From positions 1-63,157 of the IMG/VR virus record IMGVR_UViG_3300027804_000072: DNA of 63,157 nucleotides, one strand, 5' to 3'. A program made the position numbers and the translations under genes. Origin of the DNA: a virus. Taxonomy: Duplodnaviria; Caudoviricetes. The first letter of the stretch is position 1, and every line of letters starts with the position of its first letter. Under the pieces are notes generated by a model. The model was not told the origin of the DNA. It was given only the letters and a program-made list of their open reading frames with translations, and searched no databases. Below are positions 16,694 to 34,402 of the stretch, in pieces.

Positions 16694-16792
16694 TGCGTGT
16701 CCTTTCGGGTTGCTTGTAGGTACATTGTATCTTCTTTAGATCGACTAGGGGCCGACCCGTCTGCATCGCCAACTCTCCCCCAGGCCGGACTC

Positions 16793-16897
16793 TCAGTCTT
16801 CGTATGCGTCGGCCAGCATCGACTCGATGAGCGCGTACACCTCGTCCCACTCGAGACCTTCAGCCTCGAGATCTGCGATCTCTTCTTCAATCCACAT
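16793..16897 (-). CDS. acidic cassette peptide
   Basis: MWIEEEIAD..., 34 aa, after SD. Confidence 0.5.
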   Translation of the reverse strand: MWIEEEIADLEAEGLEWDEVYALIESMLADAYED

Positions 16898-16992
16898 ACT
16901 CTGTCCTTTCGTCGTGTGTAGATACATTATAACTTCTTTAGATCAGTGGAGGAGAGCCCGTCTGCTGCTCGAGACTCTCCCCCAGGCCGGGC

Positions 16993-17277
16993 TCAGCGAC
17001 CGCGCTCTTTTCGGAGGCGCTCGGCGTACGCCTCGGCAGAGGTCGGCGCGTCGATGCCGTTGCGCAGCATCGCGGCGACCGCGCAGGAGACCGCGCCGGA
17101 GTAGTTCCCGCCGGCGCAGTTCATCGTGTACATCGCGTCGCGGCGTGCCCGTACGCGGTGTTCGATCGTCGGCAGCTGCTGAAAGTACGGAGCCGAGTTC
17201 TTCTCGCCGGGGGCGCCGTGGGCCAGCGCCCATTCGAGCCACTCGTCCGAGAGCGGGGTGAGGTCTGTCGTGTTCAT
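16993..17277 (-). CDS. hypothetical cassette protein
   Basis: Repeat + SD + ORF. Confidence 0.7.
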   Translation of the reverse strand: MNTTDLTPLSDEWLEWALAHGAPGEKNSAPYFQQLPTIEHRVRARRDAMYTMNCAGGNYSGAVSCAVAAMLRNGIDAPTSAEAYAERLRKERGR

Positions 17278-17324
17278 CGTGTGTCCTTTCGTCGTGCTTG
17301 TAAGATCATTATAACTTCTTTAGA

Positions 17325-17598
17325 AGCATCAGCCCTACGGTAAGTGCCAGCGGAGGGAGCGACCCTCACTGCTGTGCGGACCCTGGCCGGGATCCGCAGG
17401 ACTTCACATCACCCGCTTACGGATGCGTCGCGAGAGGAGGACGGTCGCTTCGGCGGAGGGAGCCGGATGATCGCCTAGGTCGATCAGAGCCGCTATCGCG
17501 CGTCGGCGGAGCCTTATCTTCGGAGAGGCTTGTGCTGACGGTATGTTCTTCGTCCCAGCAGCTTGCTGGCACTTGCCGCGGGGCTGATGCTCCGTGAC
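17325..17598 (-). ncRNA. candidate structured ncRNA cassette (~270 nt)
   Basis: No SD/ORF; 27-bp terminal inverted repeat (17325-17351 / 17565-17591, 3 differences) encloses several hairpins; directly below promoter repeat 17604. Confidence 0.7.
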
Positions 17599-17622
17599 AA
17601 GATCATTATAACATCTTTAGAT

Positions 17623-17808
17623 TCAGAGCCCGCAGAACTCCCGGAGGAGTTCGGCTTCCCAGCGGGAGAACCCTTCGGCGCAGATCACGGCCTCACACAT
17701 GTCCGAGACCACCTCGTCGTAGACCTCGGCAGGGTACTCCTCGCGGCACTGAGCGAGGATGTCGCTCGCCACTCCCTTGAGGTCAGCCTTTGTGAATCGA
17801 TCTTCCAT
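17623..17808 (-). CDS. cassette protein (paralog of 24529..24702)
   Basis: DILAQCREEY...DEVVSDM..AVI..EG.S...A..LR...GL. Confidence 0.75.
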   Translation of the reverse strand: MEDRFTKADLKGVASDILAQCREEYPAEVYDEVVSDMCEAVICAEGFSRWEAELLREFCGL

Positions 17809-17855
17809 TGTCGTCCTTTCGTTTTGTTGACAAGATCATTATAACATCTTTAGAA

Positions 17856-18044
17856 TCAGCACTCGGCGGCGCTGAGTGCCTTCGCCTTCTCGAGGCGATC
17901 GGCGATGTACTTGATGCTCTGGCTCAGATAGCCGACGGCGTAGTGAGCGGTGAACTCCTCGATCCGCGCGTCCATCTCGCCGCTCGTGATGAAGTCGATG
18001 GCGCGCTTGACCTCGTCCTCGATGTCTCGGATGTGGTGGTTCAT
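17856..18044 (-). CDS. hypothetical cassette protein
   Basis: Repeat + SD + ORF. Confidence 0.7.
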   Translation of the reverse strand: MNHHIRDIEDEVKRAIDFITSGEMDARIEEFTAHYAVGYLSQSIKYIADRLEKAKALSAAEC

Positions 18045-18108
18045 TTGGTGTCCTTTCGTTTTGTTGATAAGATCATTATAACTTCTTTAGATTACCGCTC
18101 CGGCCGGG

Positions 18109-18288
18109 TCAGGAGACCCGGTCGAAGCGACGATCCGCCTCGGCGGTGGCGAGCAGGTACAGCGCCTCGCGCAGCTCGCGATCGCCGTCGCCCTCGCGCT
18201 CGATCATGAGCACGAGCTCCTCGAGCGACACGCTCCGCACGTACTCGCGGAACTGGTCCATCAGGTCTTCGATCACTCCGACGTTCAT
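18109..18288 (-). CDS. hypothetical cassette protein
   Basis: MNVGVIEDL after SD. Confidence 0.6.
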   Translation of the reverse strand: MNVGVIEDLMDQFREYVRSVSLEELVLMIEREGDGDRELREALYLLATAEADRRFDRVS

Positions 18289-18388
18289 TTTGTGTCCTTT
18301 CGTTTTGTTGGTAAGATCATTATAACATCTTTAGATTCGACCAAAGCCGCTGCCAGCCGGCGCCTGCGCGCCAGCCGGCGAGCGACTG

Positions 18389-18628
18389 TCAGACGAAGAG
18401 GTCCTCGAGATCGTACATGTCTCGGTCGACGCCCCAATAATGGACCGCAAACGCCTCGAGCTCGCTCTCGTCCAGCATCACCGACGCCAGCGGCCAGCCA
18501 CCGGCCGGCCCTTGCGCCCGCTCGATGCGCACCCATGCCGAGGGCACGCTCTTGCTCAGCCGCTCCAGCGCGTCGGCGAGCTCCTCGTCGTCGTTCCAGC
18601 ACAGGTCCACGCTCAACTTCACAATCAT
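18389..18628 (-). CDS. cassette protein (paralog of 16002..16247)
   Basis: Shared GP.GGWP motif. Confidence 0.75.
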   Translation of the reverse strand: MIVKLSVDLCWNDDEELADALERLSKSVPSAWVRIERAQGPAGGWPLASVMLDESELEAFAVHYWGVDRDMYDLEDLFV

Positions 18629-18691
18629 GCTTTTTGTCCTTCCTTCGTTGGTAAGATCATTATAACATCTTTAGAATTGCAGCGCGGCAGA

Positions 18692-18904
18692 CTACCAAGG
18701 GCGCTCTGCGCCCTCGGAGTTCGCGTACCGCACCTCGGCGATGAATCCGCGCACGCGGACCAAGATCGCCCACGGGTTCCAGAGCCAGACGGCGCGGCGG
18801 ACGGCGCCCATGTGCTCGGCTTCCATGCGCTCGTAGCCGTTGGGTCGCCACGGGCTCCCGGCTCCCCACGCCTTCGCCTTCTTGATCTTCTGCTGAATGC
18901 TCAT
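18692..18904 (-). CDS. hypothetical cassette protein
   Basis: MSIQQK after SD. Confidence 0.65.
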   Translation of the reverse strand: MSIQQKIKKAKAWGAGSPWRPNGYERMEAEHMGAVRRAVWLWNPWAILVRVRGFIAEVRYANSEGAERPW

Positions 18905-19001
18905 CTGTGTCCTTTCGGTTGGTGGTAAGATCATTATAACTTCTTTAGAATGCTCCGGCTCCTCCGGCTCGGCCGGCAGACGCCGACCGAGCCAGAACCG
19001 A

Positions 19002-19232
19002 TCAGATTCCGTAGGGGAATCCGTAGGTCTCGAAGTAGTAGGTCTCCATCCACTTCAGAGCGCCGGCCTTGGTCTTCTTGGGGCAGCCCCAGTTCATCTC
19101 GCACGCCTTCACGAGGCTGTACCGAGCGGCCTTCATTCCGGTGTTCACCTCGAGGCGGAGCATCGAGATCGCGGAGGCGACTCGCCAGTGCTCGATTCCG
19201 TCGGGGGTGTCGATGATGATTGTTTGAGTCAT
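19002..19232 (-). CDS. hypothetical cassette protein
   Basis: MTQTII after SD. Confidence 0.7.
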   Translation of the reverse strand: MTQTIIIDTPDGIEHWRVASAISMLRLEVNTGMKAARYSLVKACEMNWGCPKKTKAGALKWMETYYFETYGFPYGI

Positions 19233-19303
19233 TGCTGTGTCCTTTCGTTTGGTTGATGAGATCATTATAACATCTTTAGAAAGCCGGCTAGGCCGACGAT
19301 CGG

Positions 19304-19612
19304 TCAGAGGAGAACCTCCTCGTCCTCGTCCTCCTCGTCTTCGTCGAGGCCTTCAGGGGCCTCGACACTGGGCCAGTAGACCACGATCCCCAGACCCATG
19401 CTATCGAAGCGCGGGCTGCTGAGCGCGAGGCTCAGATCGTTGTCGCCCCCGACGCACAGAGCGAAGCGGAACGCGTCGCTCATGCTGTCGAAGGTGATGC
19501 CGAGGCACTGCCTTCCGTACATGCCGCGACCGCTGTACGAATCGATCTCGGCGTTGTCGAAGTACCCGACGGCGTCCTCGAGCTCCCAGAGCTGTTCTTC
19601 GGTGAGTTTCAT
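19304..19612 (-). CDS. hypothetical cassette protein
   Basis: YSGRGMYGRQCLG...DSMGLG.VVYWP; resembles a recurrent phage protein family. Confidence 0.75.
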   Translation of the reverse strand: MKLTEEQLWELEDAVGYFDNAEIDSYSGRGMYGRQCLGITFDSMSDAFRFALCVGGDNDLSLALSSPRFDSMGLGIVVYWPSVEAPEGLDEDEEDEDEEVLL

Positions 19613-19657
19613 TGATGTGTCCTTTCGTTGTTTGCTGATGAGATCATTATAACTTCT

Positions 19658-19804
19658 TTAGAAGTCCACCTTGCCGCGACCGCGGCAGGCGTTCTTCCGA
19701 GCCAGCGCCTTCTTGTTCGGCATCGTCGTCGCTCGCAGGCGAGACGTCGCGAATGCGAACTTGTCGGCGTCGTTCCACTTTTGGGTGATCTTGTTCTTCG
19801 TCAT
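19658..19804 (-). CDS. leaderless basic peptide (paralog of 10132..10269)
   Basis: MTKNKITQKWNDADKFAFATSRLRATTMPNKKALARKNACRGRGKVDF; stop within repeat. Confidence 0.7.
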   Translation of the reverse strand: MTKNKITQKWNDADKFAFATSRLRATTMPNKKALARKNACRGRGKVDF

Positions 19805-19836
19805 GTAGTCATTATAACATCTTTAGAATAGCGAGG

Positions 19837-20001
19837 TCAGCAGTCGCTGTCCTCGTATTCGACGATCGCCTTCTCGATGAGATCGAACGCGGCCATCAGA
19901 TTGGCGAACCCGGGAGTGCTCTCGTCGAGATTGCGCAGAACCGCCTCGATCGACGCGGCCGCTCCATAGACCTGCGTCATGCGCTGTTCGGTCAAGTTCA
20001 T
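19837..20001 (-). CDS. hypothetical cassette peptide
   Basis: MNLTEQ after SD. Confidence 0.6.
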   Translation of the reverse strand: MNLTEQRMTQVYGAAASIEAVLRNLDESTPGFANLMAAFDLIEKAIVEYEDSDC

Positions 20002-20050
20002 TGTGTGTCCTTTCGTTGTTGGTTGACGAAGTCATTATAACTTCTTTAGA

Positions 20051-20135
20051 ATTGCTGGTTGCCCTGAGTCTATTCACCCGGGCCAGGCGTCCTCAGCTCA
20101 TCTTCGGCTGCTGCTCGACTCAAGCACGTCTTGTA
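20051..20135 (-). ncRNA. candidate small structured RNA cassette
   Basis: ORF-less unit below repeat 20141; TGAGTC/GACTCA closing stem with two inner hairpins. Confidence 0.4.
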
Positions 20136-20158
20136 GAAGCTATTGTATCTTCTTTAGA

Positions 20159-20311
20159 TCAGAGGTCGTCATCGTCATCATCGTCGACCTCTTCGTCTGA
20201 CTCGACGAGCCGATCGATTCGATCGTCGTCGTAGAGGCGATCGATCTCATACTGCTCCTTGTCGTCGATCTCGTAGTAGTCTGCCCACAGGCTGTCGTCG
20301 TCTTCCCACAT
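20159..20311 (-). CDS. extremely acidic peptide
   Basis: MWEDDDSLWADYYEIDD...DDDDDDL. Confidence 0.65.
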   Translation of the reverse strand: MWEDDDSLWADYYEIDDKEQYEIDRLYDDDRIDRLVESDEEVDDDDDDDL

Positions 20312-20431
20312 TGTCTTGGTCCTTTCGTTTTGCTGATAGTGCCATTGTAACATCTTTAGAAAGGCTGCCCGTCTGCAAGGCAAACCTTCCACCAGGCCGG
20401 ATCGCTCTCTTGAGCGACCCGGCCCGACGCA

Positions 20432-20773
20432 TCAGCGCTTGTAGAGGTAGCTTCCGTACGGATCCCACTTCGCCTTCAGCTCGGCGAAGCTCTCCTCGTC
20501 GAGGAGGTTGTACCGCTCGCCGTTCAGCGCCGGCGCCTTCCAGCTCGCGGCCTTGTAGACGCCACCCGTCTGGGCGTCGATGAAGCAGTGGACGTGTCTG
20601 TTCAGTCCGCAGGTGACGATGCGGATGTACTTGCGTCCGCCGTCCATCTCGAACGTCTCCGGCGTGAGTCCGGGGTGCCGCTCGGCGAGGAACGTCACGT
20701 TTCTCGCGTTGATGAACTCGATGAACTCGGCGATGGCTTCGAGCACCGCCACCTTGTTATCCTTGGTGATCAT
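20432..20773 (-). CDS. conserved phage hypothetical protein
   Basis: GRKYIRIV...VHCFID..TG.VYKAASWKAPA. Confidence 0.8.
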   Translation of the reverse strand: MITKDNKVAVLEAIAEFIEFINARNVTFLAERHPGLTPETFEMDGGRKYIRIVTCGLNRHVHCFIDAQTGGVYKAASWKAPALNGERYNLLDEESFAELKAKWDPYGSYLYKR

Positions 20774-20835
20774 TGTTGTGTCCTTTCGTTTGTGCCAGCG
20801 GTCGCTGACAAGATCATTATAACTTCTTTAGAAAG

Positions 20836-21132
20836 TCAGATCCCCTCGTTCACAAACTTGCGGTGGTGATCGATGTGTTCGCGAGATGAATGGGCGAATC
20901 CGAGTTCCCACCCGGAATACATGCACTCGAGAAGAAGAGCGCAACGCGTGAACGCCTCGGCAAGGGTGTCGAAGACCTCGGACCAATCATTGGCCACGTA
21001 GTCTGTCCACCAAAGTTCGACCTTGTCTCCCTCGTGGATGTATCGGATGATGATCTGGACGTCTTCGTACTTTGCGTTGAAGACCTCGAGTTCGGTAACG
21101 TACTTCAGTTCCATGTTGTGTCCTTTCGTCAT
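20836..21132 (-). CDS. hypothetical cassette protein (leaderless start plus in-frame SD start)
   Basis: MTKGHNMELK. Confidence 0.7.
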   Translation of the reverse strand: MTKGHNMELKYVTELEVFNAKYEDVQIIIRYIHEGDKVELWWTDYVANDWSEVFDTLAEAFTRCALLLECMYSGWELGFAHSSREHIDHHRKFVNEGI

Positions 21133-21155
21133 GTGTACATTATAACTTCTTTAGA

Positions 21156-21211
21156 AATGCCGGGCGCACCACAGTGTCGTTTGAGACGCGCTAGACGCGC
21201 TGTCCCCGGCA
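21156..21211 (-). ncRNA. candidate ~55-nt hairpin RNA cassette
   Basis: TGCCGGG...CCCGGCA closing stem between two repeats; no ORF. Confidence 0.35.
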
Positions 21212-21229
21212 GATCCAATTGTATCTTCT

Positions 21230-21463
21230 TTAGACTGTCGTCTGGGGTCGCACGTCGACCGAGTGGCCGATGAACCGATCGAGGATTCGCATGCGGGTGT
21301 CCGACGGAGTCTCGCCCTCGCGGCAGGGAATGAAGTAGTTGATGCAGTGTCCATTGACCCTGATCTCGAGGGTGATTCGGCTGCCCTCCCACTCAGTCAT
21401 CTCGATCTTGAAGTCGATGTCTCGTGAGGTATGGACGTTTGTGGTTGATGATGTGCTGTACAC
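21230..21463 (-). CDS. hypothetical cassette protein
   Basis: GTG start after SD; stop within repeat. Confidence 0.6.
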   Translation of the reverse strand: MYSTSSTTNVHTSRDIDFKIEMTEWEGSRITLEIRVNGHCINYFIPCREGETPSDTRMRILDRFIGHSVDVRPQTTV

Positions 21464-21555
21464 GTTTCGTGTCCTTTCGGTTGGTTGTATTGTCATTATA
21501 CATTGTTTAGAATCCGACCCGTCTGCTAAGCAGATGTCCTACCAGGCCGGACTTT

Positions 21556-21610
21556 GAAAAATGCGCGAGCGCCGGAAGAGAAAGGACATTATCTCCCGGC
21601 GCTCAAGCGC
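21556..21610 (-). terminator. intrinsic terminator with anti-SD loop
   Basis: 13-bp stem 21567-79/21592-604; minus-strand loop UAAUGUCCUUUC; U-tract follows. Confidence 0.7.
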
Positions 21611-21621
21611 TCATGTTCTCT

Positions 21622-22041
21622 TCACTTTGCAGCGGCGTTGAGTCTTTCGATCAACACCGTGGTGAAGAGAGTAGTTGCGCCGGTATCGACGTTGATACCG
21701 ACGATGGGATACTTACGACGCTTGGCAGCGATGCCACCGAACACGTAGGTCTCGCCACGAGACTCGAACGTCGTACCGAGCGGCGCCGTCAACGTGACAG
21801 GCTTCCCAGACACGACGTCACTGAACCCGAACTTGGTGTAGTACTGCGCCTCCTGGCTCTTGAGGTTGACGCCACCCGCGCCGAGTTCGACGGGGGACGA
21901 CTCGATCTTGAGTTGGTAGACGTCGCCGTACCCAGTTCTGCACGTCGGCTCTGCCATTCCGTGCTTCCTGAAGATGTCCTCGATCGCCGCCTTGATCTCA
22001 GCGGTGATCTCGGTTGCCTTGTCTCTTTCGACCGTTGCCAT
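21622..22041 (-). CDS. hypothetical cassette protein
   Basis: Repeat + SD + ORF. Confidence 0.8.
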   Translation of the reverse strand: MATVERDKATEITAEIKAAIEDIFRKHGMAEPTCRTGYGDVYQLKIESSPVELGAGGVNLKSQEAQYYTKFGFSDVVSGKPVTLTAPLGTTFESRGETYVFGGIAAKRRKYPIVGINVDTGATTLFTTVLIERLNAAAK

Positions 22042-22100
22042 TGCTTGTCCTTTCGTTTGGTTGTAAGTACATTATACTTTCTTTAGATTCCAGACCTGCG

Positions 22101-22616
22101 TTAGCAGATCTGGAACCCGCCGCACGACGAAAGAAACTTAGCGAACTCTCGCACGTTCTCTTCCGTGAACGGATAGTTGGCCTCCCACGAGGGAGACTTG
22201 CCATAGCCCTGGCAACCGTTGCACCATCCGTGGGCTCTGCCCACGACGATGGCGACGTCGTTGCCGAGCACCTTGTCAGGCATGTGCATGCCGACACCCA
22301 CCTCATCCGAGCGAATCCCGGTGGCGTTGCAGTACGCGCAGTCGTCCATCGGAATCGAGGCGATGCGCTCGTTGTACGCCTTCTCATACGCGGCGACCTC
22401 ACCCGAAGCGAGCTGATCGAAGAGCACGAGAGCGAGAGCCTCGGCGCCTTCAGCGTTCAGTCCTTCGCCATCGTTGTAGTGCCCATTGACGCCGGCGGTG
22501 AGCTCCGGTGCTGCTGCGCAGCAGAAGTCCCACAGTGGTCGCCAGTACCACACGTTGTTGCGGAAGTACTCCCCAGCCTCGTCGACCGGAGCGACTCCAT
22601 ACACGTCCATTCCCAT
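22101..22616 (-). CDS. hypothetical protein with CxxCxGxG-type zinc motifs
   Basis: CAYCNATG and CNGCQGYG. Confidence 0.75.
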   Translation of the reverse strand: MGMDVYGVAPVDEAGEYFRNNVWYWRPLWDFCCAAAPELTAGVNGHYNDGEGLNAEGAEALALVLFDQLASGEVAAYEKAYNERIASIPMDDCAYCNATGIRSDEVGVGMHMPDKVLGNDVAIVVGRAHGWCNGCQGYGKSPSWEANYPFTEENVREFAKFLSSCGGFQIC

Positions 22617-22806
22617 TGTTGTTTGTCCTTTCGTTTGGTTGTAAGTACATTATACTTTCTTTAGAAAGTCGCGGCCGCAAGACCACCCCTAGCCCAGGCA
22701 TCCCTGCCGCGTTGTTATACACGGTTTCGGCCGACGGGACTTATAGCGGTTCTGCCTAGCTTAGCCAGCGCCTCAAAGAGGCAACGTCTGGCACCGCGGA
22801 GCTCTC

Positions 22807-23199
22807 TTATCGATACGTCGTCGGCATCATCGAGCAGACGTGCTCGAACGTGAGCGTCACGAGCGGGCGCGAGAGCCTGTTGTGTCGAAGCTCGCCGTAG
22901 TTGTACACCTCGACGACTCGGTCGAGCCACGACACGATGAGCACGTCGTCGTAGTCCGGCATCGTCATCTCATCGAGGTCTGCGCTGAGACCAAAGCCGG
23001 TCTCGTTCGACCACTGGCTACCGACGATCGTCGAGACGGCGATGCGCGTCGCGTAGGTCGTATCGTCCCAGCGATTCTCCGCTGCCTCGATTGCTCGAGC
23101 GGCGTCGATGTATCGCTCCGATCCGCCCCAGTGCGCGTACAGGAAGACCGGCATGCTGTCCTTGCTCTTCTTGAAACCGATGATTGCTCTGTCACCCAT
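22807..23199 (-). CDS. conserved phage hypothetical protein
   Basis: MGDRAII...FLYAHWGG...RWDD..YATR. Confidence 0.8.
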   Translation of the reverse strand: MGDRAIIGFKKSKDSMPVFLYAHWGGSERYIDAARAIEAAENRWDDTTYATRIAVSTIVGSQWSNETGFGLSADLDEMTMPDYDDVLIVSWLDRVVEVYNYGELRHNRLSRPLVTLTFEHVCSMMPTTYR

Positions 23200-23243
23200 G
23201 ATGTTGTCCTTTCGTAGTTGGTGATAAGTACATTATACTTTCT

Positions 23244-23648
23244 TTAGATTGCTGCCGCGGCCGGAGCCCAGCCATCGGCCTCGCACAGGAGCAGCCCGGC
23301 AAGCCCTCCGAAGCCTGGCTCGGCTGTCAGCTGATCGCATTCATTGAGAACCTCGGACTCGAAGAGCGCGAGACCGTTCTCGCTGAATCGTCCTGCCGGC
23401 TTCTTCATGAACCGCGCGGCCGGAGATTCGAAGACGCTGAACATCGTCATGGTGTATCCTCGCGGATCCCTGCGTGCGGCGAGCTTGTAGACCGTCGCCG
23501 TGTAGCACTTCGCGTTCTTGACGTGCTCGATGACGAGGTCAATGCGGGTATTCCAGCCCGGGTCCTTCGCGTCTTCGATGGCGGGGCCATCCCACGAGTA
23601 GGTGACCTTTCGGTCGCGGGCGATGCGTGTTGCGTTCTTGGTGATCAT
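23244..23648 (-). CDS. hypothetical cassette protein
   Basis: Repeat + SD; stop within repeat. Confidence 0.75.
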   Translation of the reverse strand: MITKNATRIARDRKVTYSWDGPAIEDAKDPGWNTRIDLVIEHVKNAKCYTATVYKLAARRDPRGYTMTMFSVFESPAARFMKKPAGRFSENGLALFESEVLNECDQLTAEPGFGGLAGLLLCEADGWAPAAAAI

Positions 23649-23702
23649 TGATTGTCCTTTCGTTGTAGTTGTATGATCATTATACTTTCTCTAGAAACGA
23701 AG

Positions 23703-23735
23703 CTGCCCGGGTGGGAAACTCATCCACCCGGGCAG
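23703..23735 (-). terminator. GC-rich hairpin
   Basis: CTGCCCGGGTGG / CCACCCGGGCAG. Confidence 0.6.
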
Positions 23736-23741
23736 TCGATC

Positions 23742-23993
23742 TCAGACGAGCTCGAGTTCGCGCGAACGCAGCTCGGCTGCGTACACATCTCCGCGCCACG
23801 AGTTCGAGCCGAAGGCGATGTCGCCCTTGGCGAGCAGGTCGACGGACAGGACCGCGACGCACTCCGGATTACCGTCGAACACGATCGCGACCTTGACGTC
23901 TCCACAGTCGTGGTCGTCGATGAGATGCACGGTGAACGGGCAGCCCCAGATTCCGTTGCGATGGTGATCGCTGTTGATGATGTCGATGTTCAT
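23742..23993 (-). CDS. hypothetical cassette protein
   Basis: HHRNGI.G.PF...NSWRGD. Confidence 0.75.
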   Translation of the reverse strand: MNIDIINSDHHRNGIWGCPFTVHLIDDHDCGDVKVAIVFDGNPECVAVLSVDLLAKGDIAFGSNSWRGDVYAAELRSRELELV

Positions 23994-24052
23994 TGATTGT
24001 CCTTTCGTTGTGGTGAGATCATTATAACTTCTTTAGAAAGACTCAGTTCGCG

Positions 24053-24466
24053 CTACACGAGCGCGAACCGAGCCTCCTTCGTCTCGTCGACGCTGGGCGC
24101 GCCCTCGAGCGTCACCCAGACGTCGAAGTGGCGGAACACCTCGCCGGCGATCTCGATCGTCTGATGATTCAGGACGAACGCCGGCGAGCAACCGCAACTG
24201 CATCCGGCAGTCTGCGACCAAGGCATGGCCTCGAGATCGATGCCGAACCCGGCGAGGTTCTCGCGGATCGCCTTGCGCCACACCTTGAACGGCCGACGGC
24301 GACGATTCATCAGGTCCTCGACGCAGTCGAACTCGTTGCTTGCGTGGACGTACATGCGCGGCTTAGAGTGGTAGCCACGATTGTCGCGCCAATCGTATTG
24401 CCGCTCGATGACGGTGATCTTTCCGTCGGCGATCGGCGTCTCGATGCGCTTGCGTGTGTCTTTCAT
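24053..24466 (-). CDS. hypothetical cassette protein
   Basis: WSQTAGCSCGCSPAF. Confidence 0.75.
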   Translation of the reverse strand: MKDTRKRIETPIADGKITVIERQYDWRDNRGYHSKPRMYVHASNEFDCVEDLMNRRRRPFKVWRKAIRENLAGFGIDLEAMPWSQTAGCSCGCSPAFVLNHQTIEIAGEVFRHFDVWVTLEGAPSVDETKEARFALV

Positions 24467-24528
24467 TTGGTGTCCTTTCGTTGTGGTGGTGAGATCATTA
24501 TAACTTCTTTAGAAACCGCTACCCTGGG

Positions 24529-24702
24529 TCAGAGACCCAGGGCGGCGCGAAGGCGACGGGCGTCGTTCGGCGAGAGGCCGTCGACGAAGATGACGGCGGC
24601 CGCCATGTCCGCCACTGTCTCGTCCAGTGCCTCTCCGGAGTACTCCTCTTTGCACTGACTGATGATGTCTCGGGCGAGTCGTTTGATGTCGTTGTTGGTC
24701 AT
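24529..24702 (-). CDS. cassette protein (paralog of 17623..17808)
   Basis: DIISQCKEEY...DETVADM. Confidence 0.75.
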   Translation of the reverse strand: MTNNDIKRLARDIISQCKEEYSGEALDETVADMAAAVIFVDGLSPNDARRLRAALGL

Positions 24703-24750
24703 TGCGTGTCCTTTCGTTGGTGGTGAAGTCATTATAACTTCTTTAGAAAC

Positions 24751-25053
24751 TCAGACTGCGGCTCCATCGATCCGACGTGCATTGGCCGGCAGCGCGATCC
24801 CACGCTGAGTCATGCCGGCGATCTCCTCGTCGTCGAAGTACTCGGCGCCGTAGAAGTGGGAATGGCCAGCGGCGCATTCCCAGCCTTCGTCGGTGCGAGT
24901 GACATCGGCGCCACATTCGCTGATCAGATCGCTGGGCGAATCGGGGTACCACCCGAAGTCGGGGTCAGAGGCGTAGGCCTCGTCCACCCAGCGCGGGGTT
25001 CCGTGGATGAGCCACGTGCAGGCGTTCATTTGGTGTCCTTTCGTTGTTTCCAT
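24751..25053 (-). CDS. hypothetical Cys/His cassette protein
   Basis: Leaderless MET start plus internal SD start MNACT; ECG...WECAAGH. Confidence 0.7.
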   Translation of the reverse strand: METTKGHQMNACTWLIHGTPRWVDEAYASDPDFGWYPDSPSDLISECGADVTRTDEGWECAAGHSHFYGAEYFDDEEIAGMTQRGIALPANARRIDGAAV

Positions 25054-25124
25054 GAGTGCATTATAACGTCTTTAGAACGGTACCCGTCTGCTAGGAATCA
25101 ACTGCCTAGCAGGCCGGACATCGC

Positions 25125-25301
25125 TCAGGGACATCTATAGAAGTTCTGCCGCTTATGCTCGACGTAGGGGCGATGGCAACGGAAGCATCGATCGGCTTGC
25201 TGCTTACGAGTCAATCGCTCGTCACGCTCCTGCTGCACCTCGTCTTTGTTGTTGCGCCGCTTGCCAAGTTTGTAGGCAGCTATGATAGTTAGTAGTCCCA
25301 T
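25125..25301 (-). CDS. leaderless small protein
   Basis: MGLLTIIAAY...CFRC. Confidence 0.55.
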   Translation of the reverse strand: MGLLTIIAAYKLGKRRNNKDEVQQERDERLTRKQQADRCFRCHRPYVEHKRQNFYRCP

Positions 25302-25376
25302 GCAGTCATTATACATTCTTTAGAAAGGCATCCGTCTGCAACTCTGGTCTTCTACCAGGCCGGACTTGAGATTGGA

Positions 25377-25425
25377 GCCGGTCCGGGGCGCGGAAAGGAC
25401 AAGAATACGCTAACCCCGGACCGGC
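25377..25425 (-). terminator. hairpin with anti-SD loop
   Basis: GCCGGTCCGGGG / CCCCGGACCGGC; loop contains plus-strand GAAAGGACAA. Confidence 0.65.
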
Positions 25426-25440
25426 GAACCCAGGCCTCTC

Positions 25441-27243
25441 TCAGCTTGCCGCTGAGAGGGCCTTCACAGCCGCTGCACCGATAGCCTTGGCTGAACCCTT
25501 GAGGTCCAGGTCAAGGATCTCCATGGCGGCCTTGGTGTTCTTCAGCAGGCTCGCCGCTGTGGGCTGGGCACCGTACGTACTCGGGAACGACAGCCACACG
25601 ACGGCGACACCGTTCTGCTCGCACGCGGCGACCCACTTGCGGACAGCCGACTTCTCGTGATCGGGGTACTCGCCGTCGCTGACGACGACGAGCAACCGAG
25701 CACCCGAGCCGTTGAGCAGATTGAGCCCACCGTCAAGTGCCTTGAACGCTCGGTCGAACTTCTCGGTCATGTCCGGCGCGGTGAACACGCGAACGCGGTC
25801 GAGATGCTGACCAGGCTTGAGCGTCGGGAAGACGTCGTTGCCGAAGTACACCATCGCTGAACGACCCTGCACTCGACGCGTCGCCTCGCTGAGCACCCAC
25901 GCGAGTGAAGCCATCGGCTCCATCGCGCCGCCCATCGAGCCGCTGATGTCGACCATCACGCCGATGTTGAGCGTCGGGTCGTCGACGTGCTTGCGCTTCG
26001 TCTGACGCCACGGCTCGCTCTTCGTCATGATGCCCTTGCTCTTGAGAGCGACACCCTGCACCGCAGCGCGAGTGCGCAGACGCCCGGGAGGGATCTCCGA
26101 GGTGACTTCGGTCTCGTCACGATCGCGATACTTCGCCTTCTCGAGAAGCTGCGCGAGCTGCACCGCAGCGACTCGTTCGTCGCCGCGCGGTGCGCGCTCT
26201 TCGTTCAGCCTCGAGTACGACGTCGTTGTCGGCATCTCGGATGTCCCTGAACCGAACACCTTCACTGCCTCGTTGCGTGCCTCCTGCGCAGTCTTCGCCG
26301 CGTTCTGCTTGGCGCTGACCTGCTCGGCCCACTCCTCAGACATCTGAACGTCTGCGAGGTCGCCGAACGCTCCGATGAGAGCGGATTCAGCACCTTCCTC
26401 GAGAGCCTTGGCAAGCGCCTCGGCGAACTCGGACGGAGTCATGCCTGCGCCGTCTCCGCCCTGCGCCTGGTCGGGCGTAGGGTCGCCGTTCTCTTCAGCA
26501 GCCTCGGTGACGATGCGCACCCACTCCTTAGCGAGCGGGTACATACCTTCAGCGACGCTGTGCTGATCGTAGCGCTGCGCCTCGAGCCAGACCTGACGGA
26601 GCGCCTCGAGACGAGAAGCACCGAGCTTCGACTCGATGACGTCGTGCAGTTCGCACACGTCGCTCTCGTCGCAGGACCCGGCGTCGACGCGGGCAAGCGT
26701 CAGAGCAGCGATGTCGGCTGCCATGACGGTGTCCGAGTCTGACTGAACGTTCGCCACATCTGAGATGACGAGGTCGAGCACGGTCGATCGCAGGAACGCC
26801 GCGTTGTTCGGGAAGCGCTCGAGACCGTGACTCTCGATGCGACCTTCCTCGAGCATGACGAGTGCACGGAACTCAGCAGGCGACAGGTCTTTCTGCGCCG
26901 GCTCGAGTTCCCACTGCGAGAAGCGTGCGTGCATCGCCTCGTGGAAGATTGCTCCGGTAGCACGAGGAAACTCGTACTGCACTTCGCGGTCCGAGATGTC
27001 GCCGACCTCCGCCGGCGAGACGTCGTCGCCAAAGCACTTCTCGACGTTGACCTCGACCTCCGCGGTGTGCGGATTGAAGAACGCAGGGTGACCCTCGGCG
27101 GCGTTCGGACCAGCGAACGCTGCGACGTCGAAGCGACCTGCCCACGAGTTCACCATCTTGCCGATGGCTGCACTCACGCCAAGCCACTCGGGGTGGCTGA
27201 CGCTCGGCGTGGTCTTCTTCTTAGAATAGTTGAATTGTCCCAT
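25441..27243 (-). CDS. VWA-domain protein with N-terminal HExxH motif (CobT-like MoxR partner)
   Basis: MIDAS DISGSM...T...VVSDG; HEAMH..E. Confidence 0.85.
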   Translation of the reverse strand: MGQFNYSKKKTTPSVSHPEWLGVSAAIGKMVNSWAGRFDVAAFAGPNAAEGHPAFFNPHTAEVEVNVEKCFGDDVSPAEVGDISDREVQYEFPRATGAIFHEAMHARFSQWELEPAQKDLSPAEFRALVMLEEGRIESHGLERFPNNAAFLRSTVLDLVISDVANVQSDSDTVMAADIAALTLARVDAGSCDESDVCELHDVIESKLGASRLEALRQVWLEAQRYDQHSVAEGMYPLAKEWVRIVTEAAEENGDPTPDQAQGGDGAGMTPSEFAEALAKALEEGAESALIGAFGDLADVQMSEEWAEQVSAKQNAAKTAQEARNEAVKVFGSGTSEMPTTTSYSRLNEERAPRGDERVAAVQLAQLLEKAKYRDRDETEVTSEIPPGRLRTRAAVQGVALKSKGIMTKSEPWRQTKRKHVDDPTLNIGVMVDISGSMGGAMEPMASLAWVLSEATRRVQGRSAMVYFGNDVFPTLKPGQHLDRVRVFTAPDMTEKFDRAFKALDGGLNLLNGSGARLLVVVSDGEYPDHEKSAVRKWVAACEQNGVAVVWLSFPSTYGAQPTAASLLKNTKAAMEILDLDLKGSAKAIGAAAVKALSAAS

Positions 27244-27301
27244 GATTTGTCCTTTCGATATGTGGTGGTGAGTTCATTATACTTTCTTTAGATTCTGCAT
27301 T

Positions 27302-27332
27302 GGCGGGCCAGCCCACCACAGACTGGCCCGCC
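27302..27332 (-). terminator. hairpin after the AAA gene
   Basis: GGCGGGCCAG / CTGGCCCGCC. Confidence 0.6.
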
Positions 27333-27341
27333 GCAGGGCTG

Positions 27342-28352
27342 TCAGACCTTGGAAGGCAGACAGGGCTCGCCGAACACTCGAGAGAGCACGTCGGCGACGA
27401 CCGGACGATCGATCTCCGGCGCGGCCGCCAGCAGATTGCTGATGGCGAACTTGGTGCCGAAGGTCGTCGAGATGTCGCGGAACGCCAGGAGCTCGCGCAT
27501 CTGCGGGGCCCACGAGACCTCGCTGGACTGCTGCTTCTTGCTCAGGTTCTGAGCTGCGGTCACGACGGTGGTCGGAGCACCGAGCTTACGCGCCAGCGCC
27601 CAGTCGGTCGTCCACTCGGTGTGGATGGCGAACCGAGACAGAAGAGCCTCGGACAGCCGCACGCCGGGAGCGTTCGGGTTGGTCGCCGCGATGACGTAGA
27701 AGCCAGGCGCCGCCTTGACGGTGCCACGCTCCGGATTCGCCGTCACGGTGTACTCCTGACGACCGTCCATGAGGCCGTACACGATGGAGAGCACCTTCGT
27801 GTCGATGAGACCGATCTCGTCGATGAGCAGCGTGCCGCCGGCTTCCGCCGCCTTGAGCAGCGGCCCATCTTCCCAGATGAACGAGCCACTCGGCGTCTGA
27901 ACGTAGCCGCCGACCAGGTCGGACACCTCGGTGTCGCCCGAGCCGAGCACGGTGAAGAACCCGCCGGGCTGGTCGCAGAACGCTGCCTCGACGGCAGCAG
28001 TCTTGCCGCAGCCGGGAGCTCCGTAGAGAAGAGCGTACTGGCGCTTCTCACGAGCGGTGCGAAGAACCTGGATGTCGTCGTGCTCGCCCCACTTGCGGGT
28101 GTAGTACACGTCGCCGTTGGGTCGGACGAACTTGGCATCTGCCTTCATCGCATCGGTGGTAGTCATCGGCACGGGCTTCTTCTCCTTGGCCTTGCGCGGC
28201 GCGACTGCGCGACCGGCAGCATTTGTCATCGCTGACATTCTACCGTACGCTTCGGAGTCGAAAGACTGCGACATGACGTCGGCAAGCGCCGGCATGATTC
28301 CGGGCCCGAGCTTCGAAACTGTGGCACTGACTGAGTATGTGGTGGTGGTCAT
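27342..28352 (-). CDS. MoxR/CbbQ/CobS-type AAA+ ATPase
   Basis: GAPGCGKT, LLIDEI, IAATNP, EALLSRF. Confidence 0.9.
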   Translation of the reverse strand: MTTTTYSVSATVSKLGPGIMPALADVMSQSFDSEAYGRMSAMTNAAGRAVAPRKAKEKKPVPMTTTDAMKADAKFVRPNGDVYYTRKWGEHDDIQVLRTAREKRQYALLYGAPGCGKTAAVEAAFCDQPGGFFTVLGSGDTEVSDLVGGYVQTPSGSFIWEDGPLLKAAEAGGTLLIDEIGLIDTKVLSIVYGLMDGRQEYTVTANPERGTVKAAPGFYVIAATNPNAPGVRLSEALLSRFAIHTEWTTDWALARKLGAPTTVVTAAQNLSKKQQSSEVSWAPQMRELLAFRDISTTFGTKFAISNLLAAAPEIDRPVVADVLSRVFGEPCLPSKV

Positions 28353-28402
28353 TTGTTTAGTCCCTTCGTTGTGGTGGTAAGTTCATTATACTTTCTTTAG
28401 AA

Positions 28403-28930
28403 TCAGAGCACGGTCGTGGCCGGATGAGGCCGAAGCTCGGCGACGTACTCCGTCGGAAAGCCGAGAGCCTTGCGCGCCTTCCAGATGCGACCCAGCAACT
28501 TGTACGGGGTCTTTCCCGCGGCGATGTCGTCCATGTCGGTGGCGACGACCTCGACGGAGACCGGGACCTTGAACAGCGTGTACGAGTTCTTAGCCAGCGA
28601 CTCGAAGACCTTGTCGATCGAGTTCAGCATCGAGTCCGTCACGATGCGATTCTTATCGCTGGTCGAAAGCGAGCTCATGACCGTGCCGGCGGGGACGGCG
28701 GAAGCGTAGACGGACGCCAGCCGGGTAGCGCGTATCTGCGCCCACTGCTTGCGAAGAGCGCCGGTAGCAAGACGACGACGGTAGACGCACACGGGCACGG
28801 TGTTGCCGTTGCTGACTTCAGCCTCCGGAGTGATGATGAGTTGTGTGGTGTAGTTGTGGGTCGCAGTCGTGCGAACGAACTCGAAGTAGAGCGCGTGGCC
28901 GACGACCATGGGGTTGTTTGTAGATGTCAT
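28403..28930 (-). CDS. hypothetical protein
   Basis: MTSTNN after SD. Confidence 0.75.
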   Translation of the reverse strand: MTSTNNPMVVGHALYFEFVRTTATHNYTTQLIITPEAEVSNGNTVPVCVYRRRLATGALRKQWAQIRATRLASVYASAVPAGTVMSSLSTSDKNRIVTDSMLNSIDKVFESLAKNSYTLFKVPVSVEVVATDMDDIAAGKTPYKLLGRIWKARKALGFPTEYVAELRPHPATTVL

Positions 28931-29061
28931 TTGGTTTGTCCTTTCGGTTTGTGGTGGTGAAGACATTATAACGTCTTTAGAAATGAAGCCGGCGGGAGGA
29001 GGTGTATAGGGACACCTCGCTCCCACCGACGTCTCACAGCGCGAACGCTCGGGGGCTTGAG

Positions 29062-29391
29062 CTACTTCGTCTGGAGAATGGTGTACGGCGTCTGCACGTA
29101 CGTCGCCTCGAAGGCTTCGGGGAAGCCGGTCTTGAGAAGATCGCGGTCGATCTTGCTCGTGACCCTCGAGACGATGCGCACGCGCTCGACACCGTTGATC
29201 GTGCCGACCTCGGCGTCACCGAGCATCTCGCGGAGAGCTGCCTCGGCTTCGGCCTTCTTGCCTTCGAGGGCCTTGATCGCTGCCTTCGCGTCGTTGAACG
29301 CGACGATCAGCGCCTCGGCCGACTCATCGAGCAGGGCGGTTTCTTCGGTGACGGCGACCTTGGTCGTCGTGGTGGTGGTGGCGGTAGCCAT
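29062..29391 (-). CDS. hypothetical coiled-coil phage protein
   Basis: Repeat + SD + ORF. Confidence 0.75.
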   Translation of the reverse strand: MATATTTTTTKVAVTEETALLDESAEALIVAFNDAKAAIKALEGKKAEAEAALREMLGDAEVGTINGVERVRIVSRVTSKIDRDLLKTGFPEAFEATYVQTPYTILQTK

Positions 29392-29454
29392 TGTACTGTC
29401 CTTTCGTCGTTCCAGCGGTTGCTGGTGAGTTCATTATAACGTCTTTAGATTTGA

Positions 29455-29715
29455 CTACATCTGCCCATCGACCCAGAGTCCTGGGAAGATCAGAGGCGCG
29501 ATGCAGTCGATACAAACCGGCCATACCTCTTCTTCAAGAGACATGGTAGATCCGTATAGGACAGCACACGGGACGAACACGTCGTCCAGTGGCCCAACGC
29601 TCAGACCACAGTTTTCACACTCAGTAGCGCCAATGGCGAAGTCAAAGATTCCGGCATTGGCGCTCTTGAGCGCGTCTTCTGCTGACTCGATCATGTAGAG
29701 GTCGTATGACTTCAC
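29455..29715 (-). CDS. Zn-ribbon protein
   Basis: CENC...CIDC; GAGG SD. Confidence 0.6.
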   Translation of the reverse strand: MKSYDLYMIESAEDALKSANAGIFDFAIGATECENCGLSVGPLDDVFVPCAVLYGSTMSLEEEVWPVCIDCIAPLIFPGLWVDGQM

Positions 29716-29738
29716 GACCTCAATCTATCAGGGTCGTC

Positions 29739-30260
29739 TCAGCTAAGGATCTTCTTGATCGAGGAAAGCTGCGCCTCGAGCTCGGCGATTCGGAGCTTGA
29801 GATTGAACACCTCGAGGCTGTCCGTCTGCATCGTCGTTGCCTTACCAGGCCGGACAGTCTTCTTGGTGCTCTTCTTTCGCTGCTGGTACGCGTTGTATCC
29901 GGCGCGGCGTGCTGCCTTTCCAAGCGAGCTGACGTCGATTCCGGAGAACACGGCAGACGACTTACGAGCCGGAAGCTCGGGACCGCCGGCCCAGTACAGG
30001 CGAACGCCGTAGTGATACGCGATCGCTCCACGGGCAACCGTATCTTCCTTGTTCTCGAGACGTGAGAACACTGTTCCCTGACTCTCGAGTAGCTGCAGCA
30101 CGGAGTGCACGTGAGACGTCGTGTACTTGACTCCACGCTTCGCGTTGATCTGCTCGGCGATCTCTCGAGCCGTCACGGGCTCGGTCGCTCCACGAAGAGC
30201 GTCGAGGATGATCTTTCGAGTCGCCTCGCCTTTGTGCAGAATTGCATTCTGGTATGTCAT
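29739..30260 (-). CDS. winged-helix DNA-binding protein
   Basis: IILDALRGATEPVTAREIAEQI...VHSVLQLLESQGTV. Confidence 0.7.
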   Translation of the reverse strand: MTYQNAILHKGEATRKIILDALRGATEPVTAREIAEQINAKRGVKYTTSHVHSVLQLLESQGTVFSRLENKEDTVARGAIAYHYGVRLYWAGGPELPARKSSAVFSGIDVSSLGKAARRAGYNAYQQRKKSTKKTVRPGKATTMQTDSLEVFNLKLRIAELEAQLSSIKKILS

Positions 30261-30377
30261 TGTTTTCCGTCCTTTACGGTGTTGGTAAGTTCATTATAAC
30301 CGCTTTAGATTCGGTTGTCATGAACTATTATAAATTTCCCGGTGAGCCGGTAAGTTCATTATAATTGCTTTAGAAAC

Positions 30378-31229
30378 TCAGTCGACGACGCTAAATACGC
30401 CGGACTCGGCACCAAGCCTCTCGAGGTTGTTCCGGTTGGGAATTCCGTTCGCGTCATCACCGACGTGGCCGGTTAAACGCTGCCATCGGGCAAAGGCGAC
30501 ACGGGTCGAGTCATCGAAGAGCGCCGGTACGTGATCGTCGAGATCGACGACCCGCTGAAGAGCGAGCTGGACGTTTAAGATATCTCGTCCACGCGCTCCA
30601 GGTTTTACCTTCATGGCACTGACGAAAACGATGCCCGTCTGCGCTCCGAAGGTCCTCCCAGGCCGGGCATTGAAATCTGGCCGACAGAACGCGGATACGT
30701 CGTGATGTGACCGAACAAGCCGGCGGATCTCGCCGTTCACCGCCTCGATCGAGACAAAACGCTTTCGATTACGCCACTCGGACGTGTCGACGACGATACC
30801 GAGATGAGGCATCGAGAACGGATCGGACGAGATCGTCGAGAACGAGAAGAACACGACGTCTCCAGGCATCGGCTCTTTCCTTGCCCGTCTGCGTCTCAGT
30901 AGTTCTGCCAGGCCGGAAGGTGAGTAGACGCACGCCGGCAGGCTGTGAATCGTCAAACCAGAGTCAAACGCGACGCAGTCGACGAACGCACCGGACCATG
31001 GAGCTGAATGGCTATTATAACCTGCCCGTCTGCCAAACTCAGACAGCCCACCAGGCCGGGCCTTGTAGCCAACGTATTTTTCAGCCGTGGTGATGAATCT
31101 ATTCGTAAGCTCTAGTCGACGCTGTCTTCGAGAGAGCTTGCGTCGAACATCTGGTTCAACTCCTGAAGTAGGAGCGTCGCCTCGTTCGCTCTCGCCGTCG
31201 TCCGAATGTGATCTTCTCTCGTCGTGCAT
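30378..31229 (-). CDS. CHAP-like cell-wall hydrolase with C-terminal PG-binding domain
   Basis: AEKYVGY..PWSGAFV..PGDVVFF..HLGIV..SIE; VQLALQ...TRVAFARWQ...GIP. Confidence 0.65.
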   Translation of the reverse strand: MHDERRSHSDDGESERGDAPTSGVEPDVRRKLSRRQRRLELTNRFITTAEKYVGYKARPGGLSEFGRRAGYNSHSAPWSGAFVDCVAFDSGLTIHSLPACVYSPSGLAELLRRRRARKEPMPGDVVFFSFSTISSDPFSMPHLGIVVDTSEWRNRKRFVSIEAVNGEIRRLVRSHHDVSAFCRPDFNARPGRTFGAQTGIVFVSAMKVKPGARGRDILNVQLALQRVVDLDDHVPALFDDSTRVAFARWQRLTGHVGDDANGIPNRNNLERLGAESGVFSVVD

Positions 31230-34104: not shown

Positions 34105-34158
34105 CTTGTACTTCTTTCTGTGTTTGGTTCTAGCAATATAACAACTCTAGAACTTGAG

Positions 34159-34230
34159 AGCCGGATGTCAGGATTGAACTGACGACCTACCGCTTACAAG
34201 GCGGTTGCTCTACCGCTGAGCTAATCCGGC
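34159..34230 (-). tRNA. tRNA-Thr(UGU)
   Basis: GCCGGAT acceptor; ACCGC-CTTGTAA-GCGGT; GTTCAAT T-loop. Confidence 0.93.
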
Positions 34231-34322
34231 TAGCGACGACGATGTGGTGCGGATACTTGATTGTGTTCCCGTAGTAGATGCTCAACAAGCGTCCTAGTTT
34301 TTTGGTTCCACATCGTCGCCAG

Positions 34323-34395: not shown

Positions 34396-34402
34396 AATGG
34401 CT

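Follow-up and report, generated by a model that had tools for sequence, protein, structure and literature searches.

Two described families of repeated sites come closest to the element reported here. The Cluster A mycobacteriophage repressor known from L5 gp71 and TipsytheTRex uses asymmetric operators and stoperators, and in the published account each site is read by two separate DNA-binding modules (PMC9283540). The ESAS family (extended start-associated sequences) of Cluster K mycobacteriophages is reported as 17-bp inverted repeats whose spacers are 4–13 bp long and which are closely associated with a 13-bp element where translation begins (PMC3203893). Here we describe a family of two-box sites in a 63,157-nucleotide stretch of DNA from a freshwater actinobacterial phage of the Caudoviricetes (IMG/VR record IMGVR_UViG_3300027804_000072; hereafter the window), in which ten copies lie in one orientation within a single zone. 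The window is the entire viral record and is estimated to be 47% complete, with about half of the genome lying outside it. From the form and placement of the ten sites we tentatively predict that they are operator/roadblock-type double-stranded DNA sites for one regulator of the early genes at the leading end of the phage.

Other phage systems also invite comparison. Terminases recognize repeated protein-binding sites gathered in one compact locus, as at the R sites of lambda cosB and the pac sites of P22 and SPP1. The pre-early or host-takeover modules of T5 and SPO1 lie in long terminal repeats and consist of many small genes with their own strong host-type promoter and terminator, which make up one temporal class and are later shut off; we know of no oriented bipartite site family described in these modules. 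A search of the literature, with supplementary tables outside its reach, found no description of the present motif.

Results and Discussion

Ten two-box sites in one orientation

An exact search of the window for CCGTCTGC-N14-20-CAGGCCGG returned ten matches, all on the + strand, and the same pattern gave no match in 100 shuffles. These are the ten same-orientation sites listed in an initial annotation made from the sequence, and the search also bears out the spacers given there, which are 16 nt in seven of the copies, with 17 nt at 16958 and 18 nt at both 25084 and 31026. CAGGCCGG occurs in the window exclusively at the ten sites, and CCGTCTGC has four extra occurrences. A relaxed pattern, GGCCYG-N12-22-GACGG, recovers the same ten only, against an expectation of 1.06, so that the window-wide pattern search proposed in that annotation yields just these sites whether exact or relaxed.

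Between about 36 and 1.5 kb of the window the genes are encoded on the minus strand, and the element in gene sense is therefore TC(C/A)GGCCTG-N-GCAGACGG(G), i.e. CCGGCCTG-N-GCAGACGG. Position profiles refine it to T-C-(C/A)-GGCC(T/c)G-S-Y-R-G-R-G ... (T/A)-GCAGACGG-(G/A)-(C/T), in which box 1 is TC(C/A)GGCCTG followed by the purine-rich S-Y-R-G-R-G, and box 2 is GCAGACGG(G/A)(C/T). Six of the sites are intergenic, each placed between the end of a small gene and the next promoter repeat. The other four are within open reading frames, as had been claimed: one is in a winged-helix gene (29822) and three are in an endolysin-like gene (30635, 30885 and 31026), in differing frames.

Conservation in relatives and selection on the nucleic acid

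An exact-pattern scan of viral contigs gave, among the matches listed, mostly single chance matches, and two contigs proved useful. Twenty distant loci were gathered through a neighbouring conserved protein of 318 aa; the endolysin-like protein, when used for the same purpose, led to no relatives. The relaxed motif is present in 16 of the 20 related loci, those without copies being L127–L130, and the pattern GGCC[CT]G-N10-20-[AG][CT][AG]GACGG gives 64 forward and no reverse matches in the window and the 20 loci together (52 of them unique), with spacers of 12–19 nt and a mode of 16. Lack of conservation in relatives was part of the outcome that the initial annotation had named as counting against the sites, and the opposite is observed. 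Five further records each show a single orientation, with forward/reverse counts of 8/0, 12/0, 7/0, 0/6 and 5/0, and controls of 0. In G001, a record 95–98% identical to the window, all six intergenic sites are kept, including the ortholog of that at 16757; their boxes are unchanged, and the spacers differ at 5 of 99 bases.

The intragenic copies are informative about what is being conserved. The endolysin-like gene (30378–31229, − strand; 283 aa) carries sites at three positions that are conserved in a codon alignment of 13 loci: A (31026–31059, −), which is the most upstream site of the window, B (30885–30916, −) and C (30635–30666, −), the last in a poorly conserved linker. In the seven lineages that share GCAGACGG the full motif is found at these positions in 19 of 21 cases, and position C is occupied in all seven, with spacers of 14, 16 or 19 nt. 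Outside the boxes the gene is 48–57% identical and its third codon positions 33–43%, and the comparison with relatives earlier suggested for the intragenic copies comes out in their favour. Box 2 is read in all three frames at intragenic sites, and the spacer differences are not multiples of 3; positions are thus held while frames shift between lineages, and what is under selection is therefore the nucleic acid rather than the protein. With a host protein just 38–49% identical, this is a clean example of a regulatory sequence kept within coding DNA across lineages. A fourth intragenic position, D (29822–29853, −), lies in the linker-coding part of the winged-helix gene, where the site encodes ...RPGK...QTD...; relatives carry a lineage-specific variant of the motif at this position, and the copy in L124 is read in a different frame.

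Box 2 varies between lineages. It is GCAGACGG in one set of them, ATGACGGGTG in L124, GACCGCTGCC in L140 and L143, and YTGAC(G/C)G (YTGACSG) in DSL-LC01, a phage for which the full 129 kb is available. All sites of a given genome, including the copy in the winged-helix gene, carry the box 2 variant of that genome, and such concerted change suggests that one reader acts on all of them in trans.

The label 'CHAP-like' originally given to the endolysin-like gene stands in part; the protein has no Pfam match, but it falls in PHROGs endolysin families and its DSL-LC01 ortholog is annotated as an endolysin. Cell-wall-binding or lytic domains are found in three separate genes of the window, the other two being a PG_binding_1 protein beside the terminase (1033–1500) and a VanY plus PG_binding_1 protein (47247–48071).

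Position of the sites relative to early promoters

The window contains an array of 63 copies of a promoter repeat, CTAAAGAAGTTATAATG, between 4577 and 30373 (−), each driving a small gene. About one quarter of these genes are leaderless, with an ATG 5–7 nt past the repeat, and the rest have a GAAAGGA ribosome site. When the array promoters are aligned there is no conserved −35 element; CTAAAGA is found at about −22 to −16. The two-box motif is restricted to the upstream half of the array (16.7–31.1 kb), and the six intergenic sites end 8, 8, 8, 9, 16 and 17 nt from CTAAAGA, in good agreement with the 7–16 bp from a promoter repeat first reported.

Measured to the −10 hexamer, these six sites, all on the − strand, are placed as follows. 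Box 2 ends 18 nt upstream of TATAAT at 21519–21550 (spacer 16; promoter 21494–21510), at 25084–25117 (spacer 18; promoter 25059–25075) and at 25332–25363 (spacer 16; promoter 25307–25323). It ends 19 nt upstream of TACAAT at 20369–20400 (spacer 16; promoter 20343–20359), 26 nt upstream of TATAAT at 16958–16990 (spacer 17; promoter 16925–16941), and 27 nt upstream of TACAAT at 16757–16788 (CCGGCCTG-N16-GCAGACGG; promoter 16723–16739). A wider survey of promoter distance covered 42 copies from the window and six loci of four other lineages, and found TATAAT or TACAAT within 80 nt downstream of 18 of them. The distance from the end of box 2 to the hexamer is 17–20 nt in 11 of these 18 and 26–27 nt in three; two at 67–69 nt are the upstream members of tandem pairs, and the remaining two are a copy at 9 nt and an intragenic copy at 6 nt. 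The sequence between box 2 and the hexamer varies from copy to copy, and it is therefore the spacing itself that is kept. Box 2 takes the −35 position in promoters that are otherwise devoid of a conserved element there, and under this geometry the bases at −35 to −30 are GACGG(G/A), a poor match to TTGACA. The ribosome-binding region is 30–60 nt further downstream, and the sites are not at start codons.

Similar arrangements recur in relatives. The DSL-LC01 ortholog of the gene that follows site 16757 has five tandem copies upstream, with starts 39–52 bp apart and a single promoter, and between the last of the five and CTAAAGA there are 8 nt, as in the window. Copies also come in pairs in L133, L134, L136 and L140, with starts 48–50 bp apart. 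The gene downstream of site 25332 (MGLL...) has orthologs in L139 and L140 that are likewise preceded by a site.

A strong hairpin lies upstream of the site in three of the six intergenic regions, one of them with a U-run. The site at 21519 sits between this terminator-like hairpin with its U-run and the promoter at 21494–21510, box 1 of the site at 20369 contributes to the 3' arm of a strong terminator-like hairpin, and the site at 25332 comes after a 12-bp-stem hairpin downstream of a CobT-like gene. Since the hairpin precedes the site, such sites would be poorly transcribed. A simple terminator scan of the window gave fewer matches than its shuffles, and misses hairpins with long loops.

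Several other features of the array were noted. The hairpins at 25364–25440 and 21551–21621 (−), just upstream of sites 25332 and 21519, carry in their loops the word GUCCUUUC, which is the exact complement of the array ribosome-binding sequence GAAAGGAC. The array also encloses genes for a CobS-like AAA_5 ATPase and a CobT-like VWA protein (25441–28352, −), the sole stretch of the window whose nucleotide sequence resembles that of DSL-LC01. A degenerate copy of the promoter repeat (34705–34721) precedes three tRNA genes (34158–34701, −; Thr-TGT, Arg-TCT and Ile-TAT) that are placed upstream of the gene for the 318-aa protein.

Proposed role of the sites and the case for activation

The reading that we favour, if tentatively, is that one sequence-specific protein binds the sites and governs transcription of the module of genes closest to the end of the genome. 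At the subset of early promoters where box 2 occupies the −35 slot, the bound protein would act as at an operator, whereas the older, promoterless copies in the endolysin-like and winged-helix genes would block RNA polymerase that comes in from upstream, as roadblocks whose effect depends on orientation, or would serve as auxiliary sites against it; on this reading its effect would be repression or blockage and not activation. We prefer a DNA-binding regulator because it explains together the orientation, the −35 slot, the intragenic copies, the tandem arrays, the concerted change and the confinement to one zone. Of the four alternatives that the initial annotation had left side by side without a choice, the operator/roadblock, with its analogy to L5, is the best fit to sites that are asymmetric, co-oriented, and present both at promoters and within genes.

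One candidate for the reader, albeit a weak one, is the predicted winged-helix protein encoded by the first gene of the array (29739–30260, −), which comes after the endolysin-like gene in most relatives. The 173-aa protein is PadR/BlaI-like with a C-terminal helix; it matches Pfam HTH_12 and Penicillinase_R and PDB entry 2g9w (E = 0.0025), and Foldseek finds PadR/LmrR-type folds with E of about 1e-3 and TM-scores of 0.3–0.4.

Several observations weigh against this interpretation. The putative recognition helix of the winged-helix protein varies among lineages with identical motifs, and no co-variation of the protein with box 2 is seen, its identity being 25–36% among lineages with the same motif and 20–28% to others. 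The spacer range of 12–19 nt is wide for a rigid DNA-binding dimer, and the share of intragenic copies, 4 of 10 in the window and 8 of 13 in DSL-LC01, departs from L5 stoperators, which are mainly intergenic. The P of about 1e-10 obtained for the distance between box 2 and the hexamer rests on a null of uniform placement, which is crude because intergenic regions are short; similarly, the 96 box bases unchanged between the window and G001 weigh little at 95–98% overall identity. Finally, the motif-linked promoters are off the main variants of the repeat in 5 of 6 cases, versus 16 of the 57 others (P = 0.013), a pattern more typical of activator-dependent promoters.

This last point bears on the first of a series of possible rivals, which we take in order of falling likelihood: activation, a packaging or entry signal associated with the genome end, an independent promoter class, an RNA element, and cassette recombination. 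An activator bound at −31 to −62 would give the missing −35 contact to weak early promoters, either in class II fashion or by sigma appropriation, for which the T4 MotA box is a precedent. The position of box 2 in promoters without a conserved −35 of their own suits such a role, as do the off-consensus promoters, and the motif-linked promoter of DSL-LC01 has a weaker hexamer, TATAGT. Activation would, however, leave unexplained the oldest and most conserved copies, which lie inside genes and lack a −10 hexamer at a suitable distance, and 57 other promoters with the same core do without a site; we consider it unlikely.

The site zone and the genome end

The sites of any one record all point the same way and occupy a single zone of about 10–14 kb, which begins beside the conserved 318-aa protein. 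The zone extends over 16.8–31.1 kb in the window, 3.1–16.3 kb of 52.7 kb in G004, and 28.4–42.5 kb of 58.9 kb in G003. In DSL-LC01 it covers 21.9–31.6 kb and accounts for 14 of 18 forward matches (13 distinct sites); outside the zone that genome has loose matches only, on both strands. The motif zone is densest next to the gene for the 318-aa protein (31300–32256, −).

This protein has a Cys/His cluster (DUF5763) and a small-terminase-like segment, and is 63–73% identical among aligned lineages. When its profile was compared with PDB, the top two matches were small terminases, 7joq (E = 0.006) and 6w7t (E = 0.13), a similarity that is marginal and local; its structure model was too poor for searching (pLDDT 47). 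More than 2,000 relatives are present in the protein collection, all of them without names. Its homologs are gene 1 in eight records (seven phages) of cultured Microbacterium and Arthrobacter phages, namely Microbacterium phages Cece, Zooman, Big4, A3Wally and Pumpernickel, one masked record, and Arthrobacter phage Atuin. In these records the gene starts 36–184 bp from the left end and occurs twice, in the Microbacterium phages inside the terminal repeat, and in the Cece record it is annotated as the terminase small subunit.

Cece has a terminal repeat of 18,079 bp, and the gene order at its left end is that of the window: gene 1, endolysin, helix-turn-helix protein and small-gene array. It also contains a repeat of its own, GTTTAGTG-N8-CTTRCG, with 12 copies per terminal-repeat copy, 9 of them forward and 3 reverse; the unique region of about 150 kb contains no copy. 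The first copy is in the endolysin gene and the others are mostly between small genes; two copies (D4) are about 12 nt upstream of a TTGACA-N17 promoter. To our knowledge this repeat has no earlier description. Further repeat families are present in Cece (L147, 1–16950), for example GGGAGAGAGGAACCCGAAATG at gene starts.

By analogy with Cece, the site zone of the window is probably the leading end of the phage and perhaps its terminal repeat. Contigs end near the locus in 7 of the 20 relatives (L126, L127, L131, L132, L133, L136 and L140); five of these stop no more than about 3.5 kb upstream of the gene for the 318-aa protein, another stops within the cluster of sites, and the seventh stops just past tandem sites. 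Such contig ends could reflect a physical end, the boundary of a terminal repeat, or assembly breaks at the nearby tRNA genes.

Another of the early proposals, packaging or injection, has gained a lead in the neighbouring gene, which is small-terminase-like and is gene 1 at the genome end of cultured relatives. Here the sites would be end-associated DNA signals, either small-terminase sites of the pac or cosB kind or marks of a terminal repeat or first-injected segment, read by the gene-1 protein. The profile matches to small terminases, the left-end position of the homologs, the zone of 10–14 kb that starts and is densest beside the gene, and the confinement of the Cece repeat to the terminal repeat are all in keeping with this, and no recognisable small terminase adjoins the large terminase gene (1497–2918) in the window. 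Against it, the 17–20 nt spacing between box 2 and the −10 hexamer goes unexplained for sites lying as much as 14 kb away from the cluster, the small-terminase similarity is slight, and the DSL-LC01 assembly is circular. Like activation, an end-associated signal strikes us as unlikely. A winged-helix open reading frame (3115–3474, −; HTH_45, E = 0.0024) is directly upstream of the large terminase gene.

The two kinds of function need not be separate. A single system made up of the sites and a small-terminase-like gene-1 protein with a zinc-binding cluster might link genome-end functions (packaging, generation of the terminal repeat, stepwise entry) to the switching of early genes, a combination that we think rather improbable. 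If the gene-1 protein were the reader, the sites would mark the long terminal repeat or first-injected segment of widespread freshwater actinobacterial phages, and the Cece repeat would be the same system using another DNA word; this extension, too, is a long shot. For the operator/roadblock reading, the small-terminase-like 318-aa protein is an alternative candidate for the reader, and appears conserved enough to match the conserved cores of the boxes.

Promoter, RNA and recombination alternatives

Each site might itself be a promoter, recognized by an alternative sigma factor or by RNA polymerase in modified form; GGCCTG would be its −35 and CAGACG its −10, about 17 nt apart, and the sites would define a second temporal class over the first 14 kb. 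Two boxes whose modal hexamer spacing is 17 nt, strict co-orientation with the genes, and one box that varies by lineage, as expected if it co-evolves with a sigma factor, would all fit. But the box spacer ranges over 12–19 nt, the hexamers of a sigma-dependent −35/−10 promoter being 16–18 nt apart, tandem starts 39–52 bp apart are too close for independent promoters, and a fixed distance to a sigma-A-type −10 would be unnecessary. Pfam identified no sigma factor, and no RNA-binding family, among the 91 proteins examined (30 larger and 61 small) from a window that is about 47% of the genome. We regard an independent promoter class as improbable.

Two other candidate structures were considered and rejected. 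A mini open reading frame, in which a Shine-Dalgarno-like spacer and NUG would precede CAGACGG, has a start codon in just 4 of the 10 window sites. An antisense promoter of the extracytoplasmic-function (ECF) type, formed through CGTCT on the + strand, needs the AAC supplied by the complement of the promoter repeat and fails at intragenic sites.

An RNA element in the sense transcript, whether for nut-like antitermination loading, processing, or binding of an RNA-binding regulator, would account for the strict co-orientation with transcription of all copies, including the intragenic ones, and variable spacing is easier to accommodate in RNA; the overlap of box 1 with the hairpin arm at 20369 might be seen in the same light. 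The folding evidence does not encourage this view. The imperfect dyad with a bulged base seen initially is real in the window, but the CAGG/GGCCCG variants in relatives leave box 2 unchanged. A hairpin between the two boxes is ruled out by these uncompensated variants and by folding energies (mean z = −0.75 on both strands for 52 unique copies versus controls), with no strand preference. A local GCCU-loop-AGGC stem that uses box 1 has 3.19 bp, as against 3.23 bp with shuffled spacers, and a stem between spacer and 3' flank is ruled out by the non-compensatory change of GGGGG/CCCC to GGAGG/CCACC in G001. As no fold rises above the controls, we take the element to be a two-part signal that lies in sequence rather than in structure. 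An RNA element would also not predict the distance to the −10 hexamer, and some sites are past a U-run hairpin yet upstream of the next start, where they would be poorly transcribed. The antitermination proposal is weakened accordingly: lambda nut combines a boxB stem-loop and a linear box in the transcript, whereas here there is no conserved fold, changes are uncompensated, and several sites are placed past a terminator-like hairpin, ahead of the promoter that comes next. An RNA role is in our view quite improbable.

The sites might also serve to shuffle small early genes, as places of recombination or as the borders of cassettes, with precedents in integron attC sites and the promoter/stem-loop cassettes of T4-type phages; this we hold to be very improbable. 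In its favour, site pairs often flank one to three small genes (25332/25084, 21519/20369 and 16958/16757), there are local tandem duplications, and a variable centre lies between conserved ends. Against it, the intragenic copies keep their positions in deep lineages, there is no recombinase nearby, no site-bounded presence/absence polymorphism separates the window from G001, and the promoter geometry is unexplained.

The initial suggestion of a link to the serine recombinase (51988–52680, +) finds no footing, as nothing ties the sites to this gene, which is 21 kb away. The recombinase is 230 aa long, with a complete Resolvase domain and half a Recombinase domain, and its DSL-LC01 counterpart is of about the same size; DSL-LC01 has been called lysogenic, on what its published description gives as a software prediction (PMC10611076).

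Comparison with known systems

Phages of this group are abundant in lakes, and the window stretch is present in DNA runs of 15 studies; their hosts are largely uncultured. The operator/roadblock reading offers a handle on how these phages control their genes, in the form of a 30–35 bp word with defined boxes, a promoter position and two candidate readers. Cece, which grows on culturable Microbacterium, would allow the idea of a promoter code specific to the terminal repeat to be tested at the bench.

The Cece repeat is like the present sites in being bipartite, in sharing the left-end gene order, in having its first copy in the endolysin gene and in being confined to one end region; it differs in its unrelated sequence, its fixed short spacer, its three inverted copies of 12, and its position upstream of a normal −35 that it does not replace. 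A directional cluster of repeated sites beside a small-terminase-like gene near a probable genome end recalls pac and cosB, but six of the sites here are 5–14 kb from the cluster, each at a promoter, and do not form a compact locus. As in T5 and SPO1, small genes with their own strong promoters occupy what is probably the leading segment, with the terminal repeat suggested here by analogy.

The ESAS family, as far as its published description extends, shares with these sites imperfectly related box pairs, a variable spacer, near-single orientation, a consensus particular to sub-lineages, residence in the same gene families, and a function that is not known (PMC3203893). The present sites differ in lying upstream of the −10 hexamer or inside genes and not in association with starts. 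Inverted-repeat character, reported for the ESAS, is weak here and not kept in relatives; the variable spacer and lineage-specific box 2 are common to both.

The comparison with L5 is the closest in kind. Both systems, from what is reported of L5, have many asymmetric sites oriented with transcription, at promoters and in transcribed stretches (PMC9283540). Here the orientation follows transcription at all ten window sites, in the 64 matches across the loci and within each further record, and sites are found both at promoters (11 of 18 at 17–20 nt) and in transcribed regions (4 of 10 intragenic). However, the L5 site is described as one contiguous 13-mer and the present site has two boxes of 8–10 bp with a variable spacer of 12–19 nt; and the L5 sites, as reported, number more than 20 and are spread genome-wide, mainly in short intergenic spaces of a temperate phage, whereas those described here occupy one 10–14 kb zone. 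No gp71-like repressor was identified among the window proteins, where the DNA-binding candidates are the PadR/BlaI-like and small-terminase-like proteins. By this analogy the element appears to resemble the L5 system in mechanism without being a member of the L5 family. A two-box site family confined to a leading-end module differs from both the L5 stoperators and the Cluster K ESAS.

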